From a virus (lineage: Duplodnaviria > Caudoviricetes): 64,000 nt of DNA. The notes under the pieces were generated by a model. The model did no database searches. It had not been told where the DNA came from and saw nothing but the letters and a program-made list of their open reading frames with translations. Position numbers and translations under genes: made by a program. Positions 6,147 through 50,997 of the stretch are shown in pieces. Within the stretch, counting starts at the first letter, position 1. Each line of letters starts with the position of its first letter. The stretch is taken from positions 1-64,000 of the IMG/VR virus record IMGVR_UViG_3300033074_001354. The stretch is one strand, 5' to 3'.

Positions 6147-8878
6147 TTAGTCAGTTCCTTTATCCAGTTCTCTGCACGAAATTCGCTATACGCCCTTTCT
6201 CGTGCAGCAGATCCTTTCTTACGAAGTTCTTCAATAGTGACATTTTTTACAATTTCTATATAATCAGATTTTTTGTTCACCAGCCAACCTGTCTCAGAAG
6301 TTATTCTATCTGCAGCTCCACCCCAATTATCAGCCATCGCTGGTATACCTGCAGCCATGCATTCTAATAAAACTCTTGGACCCATGTCCATGTACCCATG
6401 TGGCACAGAGTACCAAAATAAATTGCCAAGTGCTAAAAATTCAGGGATTGATGGATTATTTTTTGGATACTTAATAAATCTCTCACTAGCAGGAACAAAG
6501 GATGGCCCAGGCATCATATGTATCTGCAAATCATCCCGACAGTATAATACTCCATTGATCTCTAGAGGAGCACTAGCTTTATCAAATTTTGTATCTCCCT
6601 GAGAATTATGCCTGACTATATTAATCATTCTATCAAATTGTGGTGTCACAGCAAAAAACTCTGACAAATCTGTGCATGGCGTAAGAACTCTAGTTAACAC
6701 ACCTGGATGCACCGATAATAATTCCTTCTCTTGTCCAGAATTTAAAAATATGTACATATCCCAATTCATAGTCCAAGGAATAGTACCTATACCACCACGG
6801 CGATAGTTAACAGTCATGATGCGTCGTGATGCTTTTATGTTTGTAAATGCTTCTATCATCTTAGGCGTATCAAATTCCCACACATAATCATTCGCATAAA
6901 CCATCAACGTGTCACATGGCTCTCTCACTGTTGAATAATCCATCGTTACCTTAAGACCCTGCAATTCATCTTTAATGCATTGACGAAATTCCCTACTGCC
7001 AATAGAATTCCCCAACGGAATAAACTCTACATTATGTCCATCTCTAAGCAACATCTTCATCATCGTTGTTACGCTTCTGGCCTGGCCACCCCATCCGGTA
7101 GCATTTGTCGCTATCTTAATGAACTTTCCATTACGCGTAGAGACGCTTGGCGCTTTCTCCAATGTGTTTTCTTCAGGCGTAACGGAGCTTTTCCTTATCC
7201 ACAAATGACAACGATGACCGCCTTTGAATGGTCCATCAAACTTGCCAACAATATATTTATCCTGCCATTGCCTTTCAAACGGACGATTAGCATCATGCAC
7301 TATCACGATATTGCATTCTTCAGCAGCAATTTTTACTGCTTGCTCTCTGCTTTGCCCACCTGCTGGTCCGTCAACAAATGCTAAATCATACTTCATTGGG
7401 TCTTTAGGAAATTCCTTGCCATCCCACATGCGAATATCACAATCTTTGTTAAGGCTGAGTATCTTTTCTTTCCAAGCCTCTTTGTTCTCATATGTAGTGC
7501 ATCGGATATCTGTTCTTTCAGTGAACAATAGTGTTGATAATCCAGCACCAAATTCTAAGATTGATTTACACTTATGCTTATTTATAGTTGCTTCAATAAA
7601 TTTCCAATCATCTGATGTAAGTGATCCACCACCAAACGAAAGACCATACTTGGCAGCTTTATGTGATATATCATCAACCTTTTTTGGGTAAGACTTGTGC
7701 ACTAATGGAACTTTAGAAATGTTTTCTATCACAGGCTTAGGCGAAGGCTTATTCTTATCCAATCTTCCACCAATATAGTACATTTGTAACGCACGATGTA
7801 TATCTTCTGGCTCTATCATGTCTACGCACTTAGGCATTACTCCATCTTTTTCTTCTGCTGAGGGAGTTGGACCCAACACAACAGTATTGCCAGATGAGTT
7901 AACCAAATTAGTGCATCCTTCAATCGCACATTTCCAACACGCTTTAACAGCACAAGGGAGTGCCCCATCATTTGACAAATATCTGTGCCCATGATACTGA
8001 GTGAATGACACAGGCTCACGAGCGCCAGCTACTACAATGCAAGGTTTTCCTGGAAAACACCCAGTAAGATGCATATGAAAACTGACTAATCCTATAGAGC
8101 CTTCTGCGTTCAGAAATAGTTTAAACAAATCCCGTATGCCTGTCTCTTTAGATTGGGTTTGTCCGACCATGTCTATGATATTATCACCAATCAATTTTGG
8201 ATATTTGTCTTCGCGAGCTCCTATCTGCACAAATGTAATATCCGGGTTCATGTCAACAAACTTTTGCCATCTATCTATTGGATACATCTTGCATCCCCAG
8301 CCTTTTTCGCCACCGACACAAATAATCCAATAAGGTCGATCTATCAATCTAGGTGCATTGTACTCTTCTTCAAGAAACCAAATATCTCCCCATGAATTGC
8401 CCTGTGGAATTTGAACGCCTAAAGCATCTTCCATTGACATACGAAAAGCATTAGCAAAATGCCAATCCAATCTATTAGAAGAATTGGTTAACTTACTTGG
8501 TCCTATCTTAACAATATTCTCTGGCGAAGGAATCAGCGTACGATCTATGTATGGATTATGATCCCATATGTGCATTGCTGTTGACATAACATTAATGCGC
8601 ACATCAGGAAACGCCTTCTTAAAATCACGAATAGCACATGTGAACATAATGATATCGCCTAGTCGTTGGCGATTATGAAATACTATTTCTTTAGGCAGAT
8701 CAGTATGACCAATATAAGGAGCAACTCCGCACTCAATGGCTGCAGTATCTAGCATCATTTTAATACGCTGTTTGTCTTCGATTGGGCCATCTACATGCAC
8801 ATGACCATCCTTAGTCTGGGTGACCAGGGTATACTCTGTCACATTTGGATCTAGCGCAACTTTGTTAGCCATTACCAA
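6143..8878 (-). CDS. Multidomain protein: GT9 (heptosyltransferase-like) + methyltransferase + GT4-like glycosyltransferase
   Basis: GT9: RLGDIIMFTCAIRDFKK...HNPYID...KMYPIDRWQ...VSFHMHL. MTase: ILEFGAGLST, YDLAFVDGP, VIVHDANR. GT-B: GWGGQARS, DMGPRVLLECMAAGIP. Confidence 0.85.
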   Translation of the reverse strand: MVMANKVALDPNVTEYTLVTQTKDGHVHVDGPIEDKQRIKMMLDTAAIECGVAPYIGHTDLPKEIVFHNRQRLGDIIMFTCAIRDFKKAFPDVRINVMSTAMHIWDHNPYIDRTLIPSPENIVKIGPSKLTNSSNRLDWHFANAFRMSMEDALGVQIPQGNSWGDIWFLEEEYNAPRLIDRPYWIICVGGEKGWGCKMYPIDRWQKFVDMNPDITFVQIGAREDKYPKLIGDNIIDMVGQTQSKETGIRDLFKLFLNAEGSIGLVSFHMHLTGCFPGKPCIVVAGAREPVSFTQYHGHRYLSNDGALPCAVKACWKCAIEGCTNLVNSSGNTVVLGPTPSAEEKDGVMPKCVDMIEPEDIHRALQMYYIGGRLDKNKPSPKPVIENISKVPLVHKSYPKKVDDISHKAAKYGLSFGGGSLTSDDWKFIEATINKHKCKSILEFGAGLSTLLFTERTDIRCTTYENKEAWKEKILSLNKDCDIRMWDGKEFPKDPMKYDLAFVDGPAGGQSREQAVKIAAEECNIVIVHDANRPFERQWQDKYIVGKFDGPFKGGHRCHLWIRKSSVTPEENTLEKAPSVSTRNGKFIKIATNATGWGGQARSVTTMMKMLLRDGHNVEFIPLGNSIGSREFRQCIKDELQGLKVTMDYSTVREPCDTLMVYANDYVWEFDTPKMIEAFTNIKASRRIMTVNYRRGGIGTIPWTMNWDMYIFLNSGQEKELLSVHPGVLTRVLTPCTDLSEFFAVTPQFDRMINIVRHNSQGDTKFDKASAPLEINGVLYCRDDLQIHMMPGPSFVPASERFIKYPKNNPSIPEFLALGNLFWYSVPHGYMDMGPRVLLECMAAGIPAMADNWGGAADRITSETGWLVNKKSDYIEIVKNVTIEELRKKGSAARERAYSEFRAENWIKELTK

Positions 8879-15598: not shown

Positions 15599-16330
15599 TC
15601 ATACATCAATATGGCCTGTATTGTGCACCATTCTGCTTAATACATTCTTCTCTGACTGAACTCTTTGTGCCAAAGACAATTCTTCATGTGATTCTTTATT
15701 GTAGTATACCTGATTGAAATATGAATTTCTATTCTTGTTAGAATTAAAGACATTTGATTTAAATGTAGTAATATCATACTCCACTTTGCACCAATCCAAT
15801 AGTGCCTTTACATTATCCTCAAAATGCAAATCCTCAACATCAACAAAATACACGTCATGACCTAATTCTTTTATCCTCTTAGCTCTGGCCTCTACTTCAT
15901 AGCACAACCATAGGCATAACCCATAGTCATCAATACTATCAACATCATTCAACAATATACAATTTGTATCATCTGTCGGAATTGGATGATATGACAATCC
16001 TCTTGGTGTTCTGCCTGGCACGCCATTTAACCTATACCAGGAATATGCAGTGTTATGAAACTCACGCTTAAGATAAATAAATCTGGCTCCCATATTTGCC
16101 AGAATATGGAGATAACCATTCTTAGTCTGTAAGTTGGTATCTATGTATGTATCTGGTAATGACTCCCACACGTCATTGGCTATTTTGCGCCTTTCAGATA
16201 TATCCCTTGGGCTTAGCACTAATGGCTCGATCTCTGCTGTTCTTATGCCACAACACTCCTTGAATATAGATGAAAGGTAATGTATTCCAGATCTGCCAGT
16301 TGCTATAGTGAATATTTTATTATTTAACAA
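15599..16330 (-). CDS. Sulfotransferase-like P-loop protein
   Basis: IFTIATGRSGIHYL, ARFIYLKR...TAYSW. Confidence 0.7.
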   Translation of the reverse strand: MLNNKIFTIATGRSGIHYLSSIFKECCGIRTAEIEPLVLSPRDISERRKIANDVWESLPDTYIDTNLQTKNGYLHILANMGARFIYLKREFHNTAYSWYRLNGVPGRTPRGLSYHPIPTDDTNCILLNDVDSIDDYGLCLWLCYEVEARAKRIKELGHDVYFVDVEDLHFEDNVKALLDWCKVEYDITTFKSNVFNSNKNRNSYFNQVYYNKESHEELSLAQRVQSEKNVLSRMVHNTGHIDV

Positions 16331-16376
16331 ACGATTACTCCTTTAGTTATTAAATTGAATATTGTAAATGTTGATA

Positions 16377-16524
16377 CAAGTGTTCCGGCAGGATTCGAAC
16401 CTGCTCTGCGAGATATTCGGCGTCTACGTTGCCACGTAGCCTATTGGAGTCGGCTAGCTTCCTCATTTTGTACGCTTCTCGCTATTCCGATATGCGTTTT
16501 CACCAGAACGCCACGAAACACTTG
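16377..16524 (-). ncRNA. tRNA-framed ncRNA A1 with large insert
   Basis: Extended acceptor CAAGTGTTTCG/CGGAACACTTG, D-like arm GCGT..TGG..ACGC, canonical T arm GCAGG-TTCGAAT-CCTGC, ~90-nt structured insert in place of the anticodon and variable arms. Confidence 0.7.
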
Positions 16525-16529
16525 CACAC

Positions 16530-16611
16530 TGGTGAGAGAGTTGCGCAGGGGCAGGTGGTTGGCTTCCCAAAATTACTGGCGCTTTCTCAACTCCTGAGTC
16601 CCATCTCTCTC
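16530..16611 (-). ncRNA. tRNA-like ncRNA A2 with encoded CCA end
   Basis: 7-bp terminal stem GAGAGAG/CTCTCTC followed by A-CCA; interior is non-canonical. Confidence 0.55.
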
Positions 16612-16616
16612 ATAAC

Positions 16617-16715
16617 TGGTGCCCGTCAGGCGAATCGAACACCTTGTTCGGCCTCCAAGCATCTCTTGTCTATAGCCAAGATTCTCTCTTCGTAGGCTCT
16701 GCACCCAGCACGGGC
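16617..16715 (-). ncRNA. tRNA-like ncRNA A3 with encoded CCA end
   Basis: GCCCGTG/GACGGGC-A-CCA acceptor, T arm AGGTG-TTCGATT-CGCCT, internal hairpin TCTTG/CAAGA; 99 nt. Confidence 0.65.
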
Positions 16716-16725
16716 ATAAAATTGA

Positions 16726-16836
16726 TGGCCGGGGTAGGGAGTTTCACCCATTTACCGCTTCTAAAGTTTCAGTTACTTATGCCTGAGCCCGGTTCAACTC
16801 GGCTGGCTGAAACTCTACGCCTATACGCTCCCGGCC
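16726..16836 (-). ncRNA. tRNA-framed ncRNA A4
   Basis: GGCCGGG/CCCGGCC-A acceptor, T-like hairpin GGG-TGAAACT-CCC, long inner stem TAGAGTTTCAG/CTGAAACTTTA. Confidence 0.6.
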
Positions 16837-16850
16837 TTGAAACTCATTGT

Positions 16851-17276
16851 CTAGTGATAGACATCATATTTATCTGTATTGAGTTTTGATTTTTTCTTCA
16901 AATCTTTGTAGTAATCAAAGGTTTGTATGGGTTGTTTTTCTGCTACCTTTGATACTGTGTAAGTAGACACAAACTCATACTCAACTAGCCTCACTTGGAT
17001 TCTAACAGAGTCCGCTTCTGCTAGTAACCAATATGCCAGAGACATTGCTGCATCGTGCTCCAGGTATCCATGATATTTGGCCTGTGCATCATGTATGTTA
17101 TTTGGCACGCCAATTCTTGCAGTAATTGTCCTAACTGGACGCCATGTTCCATCAATTGTCATACTTCCTATTTGAATAGGAGGATTACTGGGGTACACAA
17201 GGCGTGCTTCAAGAGAGTAAACTGTTGATGTTGACTGGCCTGTCCTAATTACTCTTTCTTCCTTTGGCTTGGCCAT
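16851..17276 (-). CDS. Hypothetical protein
   Basis: 141-aa ORF with AAGGA RBS. Confidence 0.65.
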   Translation of the reverse strand: MAKPKEERVIRTGQSTSTVYSLEARLVYPSNPPIQIGSMTIDGTWRPVRTITARIGVPNNIHDAQAKYHGYLEHDAAMSLAYWLLAEADSVRIQVRLVEYEFVSTYTVSKVAEKQPIQTFDYYKDLKKKSKLNTDKYDVYH

Positions 17277-33659: not shown

Positions 33660-33892
33660 TTTTCAAACTCCAACAGTTTAATATCATACATAATCCATCC
33701 TAAATCACCAGTTGTAATACATTTGTTATTAACAGTAGTCCATGTTAACTTGCTCTTATAATGTGCCTCACAATGCAATTTTGCAGATTTTAATGATTTA
33801 AAATTTTTTATCCAAATTATTGTAGTATACTCAGTGCCCATAGAACCACCAAGATGTGTTAAATCTGTTGCGATTGCAGTATAACTATTCAT
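33656..33892 (-). CDS. Hypothetical protein
   Basis: Probable start MNSYTAIATDL within the 33656..33991 ORF. Confidence 0.55.
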   Translation of the reverse strand: MNSYTAIATDLTHLGGSMGTEYTTIIWIKNFKSLKSAKLHCEAHYKSKLTWTTVNNKCITTGDLGWIMYDIKLLEFEK

Positions 33893-34108
33893 ATCTGCAC
33901 CTAATAGTATTTTCTGACTTCGTTGCATCCACCGGCACAAACTTCCTCTCGGCGTAGAGTTCGACGCGGTATTGTTTATCGTAATGATCATGTATACCAG
34001 GTTGGGCGGGTATTAGATTGTGTGCCATTATTAAAAAGTAATAACCACTCCTAAAAAAACGCCAGCTAAAAACTCGTAGATTGACATATATCCTCCTAAT
34101 TGTTAGTT

Positions 34109-34184
34109 GTTCCGGGCTCGGATTCAATCGCGCTCTTGCGCTACGCCCTCCGCGTCCGATAGTTTTAGTCAGGACACCCGGAAC
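34109..34184 (-). ncRNA. tRNA-sized ncRNA B1
   Basis: 8-bp terminal stem GTTCCGGG/CCCGGAAC, inner TCGGA/TCCGA and GCGC-AAGA-GCGC hairpin. Confidence 0.5.
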
Positions 34185-34192
34185 TGAATTAA

Positions 34193-34335
34193 TGTGCGAA
34201 GGCCGGGCGCTACTCCGGCTTCCTTCGGCTACGGACATTTCGGGTGTTAGTCCATAATTTTAGCCCCTACAAAAACCCCCGAGGCCTTAAGTATTTGCCC
34301 TGTTGCGTGACTGCTAATCCACGCCACTCCGCACA
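34193..34335 (-). ncRNA. tRNA-framed ncRNA B2 with large insert
   Basis: TGTGCGGAG/CTTCGCACA stem, TGGCGTG..CACGC D-like arm, GCCGG/CCGGC T-like arm. Confidence 0.6.
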
Positions 34336-34342
34336 AACTTAA

Positions 34343-34520
34343 GCAAGTGTTCCGGCAGGCCATTTCAACCTGCATTGGATACTTCCATAGCGTTTCTACG
34401 TAACCTACTATGGACGCTCGAAGTCTTTAACCTACCAGCTCGGATTATTTCTTATCCATTTGCTTTATCTTCGTCAAGATACTCGCATTAGCGTCTCTCT
34501 TCCGCCACGGAAACACTTGC
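34343..34520 (-). ncRNA. tRNA-framed ncRNA B3, paralog of A1
   Basis: Same frame as A1 (CAAGTGTTTC(C)GTGGCG...GCAGG..CCTGCCGGAACACTTG) with an unrelated, longer insert. Confidence 0.7.
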
Positions 34521-34537
34521 AAACTATCTCAAAGAAC

Positions 34538-34609
34538 TGGTGGCGGTGTTCTTACCCGCATCCCACACAGGCCGTTTCTTAAGTCGTGCCTGCTACGCTC
34601 TCCACCGCC
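34538..34609 (-). ncRNA. tRNA-like ncRNA B4 with encoded CCA end
   Basis: Perfect GGCGGTG/CACCGCC-A-CCA; inner CAGGC/GCCTG stem; no canonical T loop. Confidence 0.6.
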
Positions 34610-34639
34610 AAAGCAACGTAGTATTAAGAATGCAGTAAC

Positions 34640-34726
34640 TGGCAGCCGGGCATGACCACGGTAAGCGTTACGTCTTCCGGTCTGATGCTTAACGCCTGCA
34701 CCCACGTTTCTTAAACGCTCCCGGCC
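34640..34726 (-). ncRNA. tRNA-like ncRNA B5, paralog of A4, with CCA end
   Basis: Begins with the same TTCAA-GGCCGGGAGCGT as A4 and ends CCCGGCT-G-CCA. Confidence 0.65.
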
Positions 34727-34734
34727 TTGAATTT

Positions 34735-34992
34735 TTATTCGACAACTTCAATAATGACGTCCCCTCCAACTCGAACCAACTTTCCAGTTGCTTTATCCAT
34801 AAATTGCCATCCGTCTGACTGAGACATGGACTCTACTTTTCCGCTAGAAATCCACTCGCGAACCAATACTCCACCGTTATACATGGTAACTTTATGTTCT
34901 TTTCCAAATGATAAAAAGCTGGCTTTTCTTGCATCTGTGCAACCTGAAACAATAACTGCAAAAATAAGCGCTGCCAAAATCTTGATTCTCAT
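34735..34992 (-). CDS. Lipoprotein
   Basis: Lipobox IVSGC after a hydrophobic signal. Confidence 0.75.
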   Translation of the reverse strand: MRIKILAALIFAVIVSGCTDARKASFLSFGKEHKVTMYNGGVLVREWISSGKVESMSQSDGWQFMDKATGKLVRVGGDVIIEVVE

Positions 34993-35880
34993 CCCTCATT
35001 CTCCTTCTGGTTGTGTTGTGGCGTTGTTAAAAATTCTATTTAAAATAGTTCGTGTTCTGCAGTCTCTGCTTTTGATAGGGTTAACGATGTGATCAAAGAC
35101 ATCTGTTAGCATGTATAATAAAATTCCGCAATCTTTACAAATCCAAAAATCAGAACTCACCGCTCACCCTCCTTTGGTTGGTGGTTAATCTAAAATAATC
35201 ATATTGGTTTGATTTAAATCTGATAACCTTCTCTCGAAGATCTCTTTCAATGGCTTATGCAACAATGCCTTTATTCTAATATGAAACTTTTCCTGCCATT
35301 CTTTGGTATTCATTTCTTCTACTGTTACTCTTTTTATGTCACTCATCGTTCACCACTTTCAATGACGGTGGTGATGCGCTATCTGGTGTAGGAATTATCT
35401 TTTGACCGCTACAAACATCGCATAAAAGGTCGTTGCCGAGCTTGACCATTGATACACATCACCGGGAACATAGCTTGGCTTACTAACAATTCCTTGGCCA
35501 TCACATTTAGGGCACTTTTGCCAGACCTTCACCTCACACCCTCCTTTGGTTGATGTAACTTTAAGGTTCATACATGTACAATTTATAATCATCGGGCATC
35601 AAGAAGAAAAAATAAGGATCATTGTCTCCACTGTACTTGCCATTCAAAAAGGAGACTATCCTTTCTCCATAAAATTCACCAACATTTTCAGCAATGAGCA
35701 CATCAGATACAGTTTCTTTATCGTAATTACTTCTTCCTACTATCTTCATGTGGGCCGTCCCCCAACTTTTCGTAACATCTTTTAGAACAATAAACGTGTG
35801 AGACATTGTGAATGAAGTATTCAAACACAGCAAGATGCGTATCTTTTTGTTTGCCACACACATCACAAATAGAAACTCTC

Positions 35881-50899: not shown

Positions 50900-50907
50900 A
50901 GGGCAAT

Positions 50908-50997
50908 TGGTGGGGCAGTGGGATTCGAACCTACTAGCCGTTAGGCACGAGTCAGTGCTAGCACTGCTCGACGTCTCACCAATTGCACCGTATGTCA
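50908..50997 (-). tRNA. Aberrant class II-like tRNA / pseudo-tRNA
   Basis: T arm GTAGG-TTCGAAT-CCCAC, encoded CCA, variable hairpin GCC-TAAC-GGC and AATTGG D loop, but a mismatched acceptor and an over-long anticodon stem. Confidence 0.5.

Follow-up and report, generated by a model that had tools for sequence, protein, structure and literature searches.

What do the two largest ORF-free gaps of an otherwise tightly packed phage genome encode? The DNA analysed here (the window) comprises positions 1-64,000 of a 134,685-bp IMG/VR phage contig with a CheckV completeness estimate of 73%, and it contains both gaps: array A (16377..16841, minus strand), with units A1-A4 in ~470 nt, and the paralogous array B (34109-34731, minus strand), with five units, B1-B5, in ~620 nt. 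Our data suggest that both arrays are probably clusters of tRNA-derived, non-decoding RNA genes with variable inserts, which would be processed to stable RNAs. We demonstrate the architecture of the units, the paralogy of the arrays, their relationship to a wider family of phage RNAs and, within that family, covariation of the acceptor stems.

The arrays in their genomic setting

All genes of the window lie on the minus strand, and so do all array features. The arrays have a GC content of 0.51-0.52, compared with 0.396 for the genome, and the ORFs within them matched no PHROG family. They start 4-9 nt past a stop codon (4 nt in array B), and array B ends 13 nt ahead of the strong ribosome-binding site of the next gene. 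No site resembling a sigma-70-type promoter or an intrinsic terminator immediately flanks either array, the nearest promoter-like match being found ~220 nt upstream of array B, within a gene. Because they have no promoter or terminator of their own, the arrays are presumably transcribed within late structural-gene operons.

The flanking proteins had no informative Pfam or PHROG match. An 18-codon hydrophobic ORF (MSIYEFLAGVFLGVVITF) at 34031-34087 on the minus strand comes directly after array B and is preceded by AGGAGG, a strong ribosome-binding site. The listed 117-aa ORF at 33885-34238 probably owes its 5' part to spurious extension of a shorter gene that starts at 34028.

We found no close relative of this phage in any collection searched. 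Its capsid protein is 33% identical to that of the Bacillus phage SP-15, and in a portal-based search for relatives its T4-type portal reached at most 43-44% identity to any known protein or locus. The lack of a close relative leaves the units of array B with no covariation support of their own. The ±10-kb loci of the portal relatives revealed neither similarity to the arrays nor GC-rich non-tRNA gaps, and a BLAST search of both arrays against 50,697 phage records gave no match. Among sequencing runs, no RNA run was listed as containing this phage, and the two DNA runs that do contain it yielded contigs identical to the window, and therefore no variation.

Architecture of the units

Array B opens with the 17-mer TTCAAGGCCGGGAGCGT (34715..34731, minus strand), which also starts array A. 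B1 (34640..34726, minus strand, 87 nt) is closed by an acceptor-like stem, GGCCGGG/CCCGGCU, followed by GCCA, and has its 5' frame in common with A1 (16723-16836, minus strand, 114 nt). Its minimum free energy (MFE) fold is a four-way junction lacking a T-loop signature, with weak thermodynamic support (z -0.41). B2 (34538..34609, minus strand, 72 nt) has a perfect 7-bp stem, GGCGGUG/CACCGCC, followed by ACCA and then GU, and its interior consists of two hairpins without a T-loop. B3 (34344..34521, minus strand, 178 nt; chassis proper at 34348-34515) has frames identical to those of A4. Its closing stem is extended and encloses a D arm of the leucine-tRNA type (GUGGCGGAAGAGAGACGC), followed by ~135 nt of insert and, directly against the acceptor 3' strand, the hairpin GCAGG-UUGAAAUGG-CCUGC; B3 has neither an anticodon arm nor CCA. 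B4 (34195..34333, minus strand, 139 nt) repeats the architecture of B3 with different, compensated frames, namely an acceptor UGCGGAG/CUUCGCA, a D arm UGGCG..CGC and a hairpin GCCGG-AGUAGCGC-CCGGC followed by C (fold z -0.9). B5 (34109..34184, minus strand, 76 nt) is closed by an 8-bp stem, GUUCCGGG/CCCGGAAC, and has no recognisable tRNA signature.

In array A, A2 (16617-16715, minus strand) shows a T-loop UUCGAUU, an ACCA end and six of seven stem pairs, and A3 (16530-16611, minus strand) also ends in ACCA. A4 (16377-16526, minus strand, 150 nt) combines a canonical T arm (GCAGGUUCGAAUCCUGC), a D arm with GG, an 8-bp acceptor and an insert of ~105 nt.

A4, B3 and B4 each have an insert of 100-135 nt set between a leucine-type D arm and a T-arm hairpin and closed by an acceptor stem, and all three lack an anticodon arm. 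What they appear to retain is the upper part of a class II leucine-type tRNA (acceptor helix, UGGCG..CGC D arm and stacked T-arm hairpin), in which the anticodon and variable arms would have been replaced by a structured insert, different in each copy. B1, B2 and B5, on the other hand, are stem-closed, with no tRNA signature beyond the closing stem. The first-pass annotation had taken all five units of array B for tRNA-framed RNAs, a description that suits B3 and B4 but not these three. Of the lengths it gave, 178 and 87 nt are exact, but its 148 nt is 2 nt short of the actual 150, and its 111 nt compares with a measured 114.

The sequence NCCA follows a 7-bp stem in B1, B2, A2 and A3 (with the 6/7 stem in A2), and GU comes next in all four. 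NCCA ends had earlier been attributed to B4 and B5; two units of array B do have them, but these are B1 and B2, so that the statement fits only if the units are numbered along the plus strand. On its own, the combination of a 7-bp stem and a following NCCA is frequent (0.71 per kb genome-wide), and GT follows CCA at 5 of 13 array sites, compared with 7.8% genome-wide.

In a strict genome-wide search for 7-bp acceptors with a stacked canonical T arm, only the four real tRNAs and A4 matched. We also designed a chassis descriptor, requiring a 7-8-bp acceptor helix, a UGGYG..CRC D arm, a 5-6-bp hairpin abutting the acceptor 3' strand and a length well above that of a tRNA. In the 134.7 kb of the contig it found A4, B3 and B4 only, and 20 shuffled genomes together gave five matches. 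Fold z-scores were uneven, with -4.1 for A1, -2.5 for A4, -2.4 for B5 and -1.8 for B2, and values above -1.1 for B1, A2, A3 and B4; B1 and B4 fold no better than shuffles. The T-loop is UUCGAAU in A4, which has GG in a divergent D loop, and B4 has an 8-nt loop. With its 9-nt T-loop (UUGAAAUGG) and a D loop without GG, B3 may not form a tRNA elbow.

In the MFE fold of array B, the B1 5' strand AAGGCCGGG pairs with CCCGGCCUU in B4, ~520 nt downstream, closing the region from B1 to B4. This long-range pairing, the one contact named in its support, favours a single large structured RNA over separate units, each array being then a GOLLD- or ROOL-like molecule of 470-620 nt with tRNA-like modules. 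GOLLD and ROOL are often found beside tRNAs in phages, and the whole-array fold z-scores (-2.6 and -2.2) agree with such a molecule. Nevertheless, the same 5' strand has a perfect local partner in array A, within A1, no Rfam match was found at E<=10 to GOLLD, ROOL or any other family, four units have NCCA and then GU as expected of separate processing sites, and related units in other phages occur singly. We consider a single large RNA very improbable.

Shared frames around unrelated interiors

Both arrays had been said to open with one identical 17-mer and to contain a unit with common frames and an unrelated interior, and both observations hold. The 17-mer has exactly two copies in the window (34731-34715 and 16841-16825), and any match appeared in none of 100 shuffles. 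The frames TGCAAGTGTTTC(C)GTGGCG and CCTGCCGGAACACTTG are exact in both arrays, where they enclose B3 (178 nt) and A4 (150 nt), the identical blocks measuring 19 and 16 nt. Between the frames, the best local alignment score of the two interiors was reached by 139 of 1000 dinucleotide shuffles, so by sequence the interiors appear effectively unrelated.

Every stem is identical between B3 and A4, and the D loop and T loop differ, which is the reverse of normal tRNA evolution. Since their stems are identical and not covarying, the pair gives no structural evidence. From such sequence mosaics we infer that recombination may have taken place at the frames. Nothing points to a repeat/spacer-like system, as had been suggested. 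Words in common with the opposite genome strand, looked at as possible antisense targets, reach only 14 nt, about the chance expectation.

Several searches with array sequences produced candidates that were rejected. The nine matches of the 17-mer in IMG/VR were all due to chance, in unrelated contexts. A 24-mer covering the T arm and acceptor of A4 hit one Streptomyces tRNA remnant in genome contigs and nothing in IMG/VR. Two metagenome scans with the array frames gave no match and then four chance matches in high-GC contigs. Within the contig but outside the window, at ~83400-83620 on the minus strand, a gene end that reads like the C-terminus of a GroEL-type chaperonin contains a chance 10-mer match to a frame.

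The arrays could also be pseudogene leftovers of a tRNA island, functionless and in decay. Relatives of this phage carry ordinary tRNA arrays adjoining the portal gene, B1, B2, B5 and A3 display no tRNA signature but a stem, and the fold z-scores are weak in half of the units, all of which would fit this origin. However, decay would break stems, and closing stems are perfect or nearly so in all units; nor would it add structured inserts of 100 nt, or leave blocks of 19 and 16 nt identical between arrays with randomised interiors. Useless DNA is soon lost from phage genomes, yet the arrays are the two largest gaps of this one. Decay is, in our judgement, quite improbable, a point to which the family described below adds.

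Comparison with known RNA classes

With ARAGORN at default settings and Rfam 15 at gathering thresholds, two tRNAs were found in the window and four in the genome, none of them in either array. Rfam 15 gave no match, including tRNA (RF00005), GOLLD and ROOL, when 33800-35000 and 16200-17000 were searched at E<=10. The first-pass view of the units as tRNA-derived and yet non-decoding agrees with this result.

A4, B3 and B4 resemble class II tRNA-Leu (RF00005) in the sequence of the D arm, the U8-G9 junction and the stacking of the T arm on the acceptor; the D arm of B3 (GUGGCGGAA..GACGC) is of the class II leucine-tRNA type, and that of A4 is likewise leucine-type. They differ from tRNA-Leu in lacking the anticodon arm, the long variable arm and A73, and in being 139-178 nt long, compared with ~85. 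The discriminator of A4, B3 and B4, in the 7-bp register, is C73 and not A73, the identity element of E. coli LeuRS.

It might be argued that B3 and A4 are tRNA genes with a large intron, spliced to a decoding tRNA, given that ARAGORN, with an 80% threshold and introns allowed, gives both a class II cloverleaf, the 'introns' measuring 59 and 86 nt. Nonetheless, the anticodon stems so predicted are poor, Ser(AGA) is called on a leucine-type D arm, a group I intron would need more length than the inserts offer, the D and T loops differ between B3 and A4, and default ARAGORN and Rfam find nothing in either unit. To our knowledge, there is no bacterial mechanism for introns such as those drawn. 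We find this explanation hardly credible.

There was no tmRNA by ARAGORN -m, even at a relaxed threshold, nor by Rfam, and the units have neither G3-U70 nor a tag reading frame. As for bacterial Y RNAs (YrlA), the contig has no TROVE match and the units end in the acceptor stem.

A wider family of anticodon-less leucine-tRNA-like RNAs

A unit of the same kind is present in SPP1 at 6646-6756, between head genes 9 and 11, with more tRNA-like hairpins up to ~6830. Against the Rfam tRNA model it scores 21.6 bits, with a 50-nt local end where the anticodon arm would be. The RefSeq 'gene 10' placed over this unit, a hypothetical gene on the opposite strand flagged as conflicting with its translation, is dubious, and the 2018 SPP1 re-annotation paper, which presents a revised genome, does not mention a tRNA at all. 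In Bacillus myophages, a family unit is located in the tRNA island, at a distance of 1.4 kb upstream from the portal gene, and family units were found in tRNA islands adjoining portal genes in Bacillus phage Grass as well as in the portal relatives of the present phage. All units of the Bacillus phages SPP1, Grass, Goe3 and SBSphiJ match the chassis descriptor.

Between Grass and SBSphiJ (both Nitunavirus), the flanks, acceptor and T arm are identical and the inserts unrelated, with one compensated C-G to U-A change in the D stem. Between SPP1 and Grass, the insert is almost unchanged and the acceptor differs at five compensated pairs.

A first scan of IMG/VR, with the T arm alone as query, recovered 12 clean units. 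Among them there are ten different acceptor stems, each fully paired, and the inserts, 56-117 nt long, are unrelated. Covariation is seen at seven of the eight acceptor positions in these 12 units, with 35 double-change cells compared with 9.4 in shuffles, a number that none of 500 shuffles reached. A second scan, with the canonical T-loop version, extended the family to at least 118 contigs. Among the 79 units examined from it, 68 have all seven acceptor pairs, lengths are 100-130 nt, and ARAGORN called none a tRNA. The D arm and T arm are invariant across the family, the T-loop being UGCAAAU or UUCGAAU and the D loop GAAUAGGUAGA or similar, with GG.

Among the 118 matches listed from the second scan there are at least 70 insert clusters and at least 36 acceptor types, and one acceptor type carries at least 31 insert clusters. 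The inserts of the family are hypervariable and its acceptor stems covary. The check proposed at first pass, whether the frames are no more conserved than the inserts, thus did not refute the idea of a constant frame around unrelated middles; that pattern is real for B3 and A4 and general in a family that was assembled independently of them. An insert-bearing design that recurs in more than 100 unrelated viral contigs, with covarying stems, also argues against the decay of tRNA gene clusters.

In the UUCGAAU subfamily the acceptor stems vary freely, and A73 is found in 64 of the 74 units with at least six of seven acceptor pairs; position 73 is mixed in the UGCAAAU subfamily. Because A73 is the main leucine identity element, RNAs of the UUCGAAU subfamily may be chargeable by LeuRS in spite of having no anticodon.

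The family is absent from Rfam 15, and we found no paper describing it in the literature searched. The earlier proposal of an undescribed family is correct in so far as Rfam 15 contains no match, but this kind of RNA has a precedent in T4 RNAC and RNAD.

Membership of the array units

For the covariance model R1, we used only the 12 units of other phages and no sequence from this phage. It recognized B3 at full length and with correct ends at 24.8 bits (E 2.5e-4 per genome), and with filters off at 25.9 bits (E 1e-5), a score near the ~28 bits that R1 gives to real tRNA-Leu genes. With default filters on the whole window, B3 was paired to the wrong 3' partner, and with filters off the alignment was correct. 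The match to A4 is weaker (15.5 bits, E 1.2e-3 in 1.6 kb, correct ends). The 3' frame of A4 is identical to a common family frame at 22 of 23 positions. B4 (10 bits, E 0.27) and A1 (6.7 bits) did not reach significance, and B1, B2 and B5 had no match. As judged from these sequence scores, B3 is a member of the anticodon-less leucine-tRNA-like phage RNA family, and A4 is weakly so.

The array units with this chassis and the SPP1, Grass, Goe3, SBSphiJ and IMG/VR members have in common the acceptor helix, the UGGCGGAA..GACGC D arm, the T arm abutting the acceptor, an insert in place of the anticodon and variable arms, the absence of an encoded CCA and the vicinity of head or portal genes. A4, B3 and B4 depart from the family by C73 and by acceptors extended to 11-12 bp. 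In addition, B3 has a non-canonical T-loop and D loop, and A4 a divergent D loop.

In the portal relatives, R1 detected units of 192, 146 and 108 nt at 41-48 bits that were not called by ARAGORN. Among the long units, one is inside a tRNA array and one has exactly the T arm of A4. In one of these relatives (L038, 8884-8994, minus strand; also L036, 6080-6190) a tRNA-like gene of 111 nt combines a canonical T arm with an acceptor of 9 bp, GGCCAGUGG/CCACUGGCC. It was not called by ARAGORN and may be a non-canonical long-acceptor tRNA.

Other tRNA-like elements of the contig

Just upstream of tRNA-Met, at 50905-50990 on the minus strand, a further tRNA-like unit immediately follows an instance of the phage promoter motif TGCA-N12-GTTTCTATGAAGTGTTG. 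Ten base pairs, GCAAUUGGUG/CACCAAUUGC, close the unit, which contains a long hairpin and another with a T-loop-like GGUUCGAAUCC; neither ARAGORN nor Rfam called it. Outside the window, at ~95390-95510 on the minus strand, we observed a circularly permuted tRNA-Ala-like gene in which the T arm, acceptor 3' strand and ACCA are followed by a linker, the acceptor 5' strand (with G3-U70) and the D arm. The ends of its transcript pair at the would-be anticodon stem, the layout of YrlA, in a contig without a Ro60/TROVE gene, and Rfam tRNA matches it as a 13-bit fragment only.

Proposed processing and possible functions of the array RNAs

If the arrays are clusters of tRNA-derived genes, their tRNA-like ends would allow host RNase P and 3' processing enzymes to excise each unit from the late transcript. 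The CCA-less B3 and B4 would require RNase Z plus a CCA-adding enzyme, and the NCCA-encoding B1 and B2 exonuclease trimming. No gene for a CCA-adding enzyme, RtcB or Ro60/TROVE was found in the contig, which is estimated to be 73% complete, and CCA is not encoded in the four real tRNA genes of the phage. The products would be stable tRNA-shaped RNAs, with the frame providing for processing and stability and the insert acting as the working, or fast-evolving, part.

The same ends might instead serve as processing punctuation, letting RNase P and RNase Z cut the late transcript between genes and set the stability of the flanking mRNAs, with interiors left to drift, much as do the t-elements of plant mitochondria or the tRNAs that punctuate transcripts in animal mitochondria. 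The position of the arrays, exactly between a stop codon and the next ribosome-binding site and without promoter or terminator of their own, is what such punctuation predicts, as is the restriction of A4/B3 conservation to the frames around interiors at chance similarity. On the other hand, one cut site would suffice, and the arrays devote 470-620 nt of a compact genome to four or five units. The invariant D arm and T arm of the family exceed the needs of mere cleavage. Furthermore, one insert of the family has hardly changed between SPP1 and Bacillus myophages unrelated to it; its maintenance while the acceptor stem was exchanged suggests selection on the insert. We therefore view punctuation as unlikely, and excised RNAs with working inserts as the better reading.

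A bolder version of that reading is speculative and, at present, unlikely. In it, the arrays belong to a phage RNA system whose constant, tRNA-Leu-shaped frame would hijack host tRNA processing, CCA addition and, in members with A73, perhaps leucylation. Interchangeable inserts, swapped like cassettes between phages, would each bind a different target of the host or of rival phages. Both arrays would serve as batteries of this kind, with expression alongside the virion genes.

The genes of T4 RNAC and RNAD form part of the tRNA gene cluster, and their transcripts, with paired ends that resemble those of a tRNA, undergo RNase P processing. These small non-tRNA RNAs of a phage (species 1 and 2 RNAs) are expressed late, and their function is still unknown (PMC9697503). 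They are the closest published precedent for the array units, a likeness drawn from descriptions, with two single genes in T4 compared with two paralogous arrays here. We know of no description of a constant-frame, variable-insert pattern for RNAC and RNAD. Candidate tRNA-like RNAs of phages are also listed in a survey (PMC10690425).

tmRNA and Y RNAs resemble the array units in that a large non-tRNA domain is set within a partial tRNA body, a feature described for YrlA (PMC4201824). The ends of a Y RNA are nevertheless on the anticodon side, whereas those of an array unit are in the acceptor stem, and the C4 antisense RNA, which has its own Rfam family, gave no match to the array units. In both engineered tRNA scaffolds and the RNase P-processed C4 antisense RNA of P1/P7, a tRNA-like frame gives processing and stability to an unrelated functional RNA. 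The engineered scaffolds are artificial, and in them the foreign RNA is placed in an intact anticodon stem.

Annotation of phage tRNA islands usually stops at what tRNA finders call, and the remainder is left blank or filled with spurious ORFs, of which 'gene 10' of SPP1 is an example. Array B is one more instance of the family, its value being raised by the exact sharing of frames, the position in a structural operon and the link with SPP1. The two arrays join a family traced to SPP1, Bacillus myophages and more than 100 viral contigs, a pattern that suggests a widespread non-decoding use of the tRNA shape, which might in turn bear on the fifty-year-old puzzle of T4 RNAC and RNAD. With a member in SPP1, a model phage amenable to genetics, function can now be tested directly. 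If the bolder version above is true, the modular system of frames and inserts would be the RNA counterpart of variable anti-defence gene cassettes.
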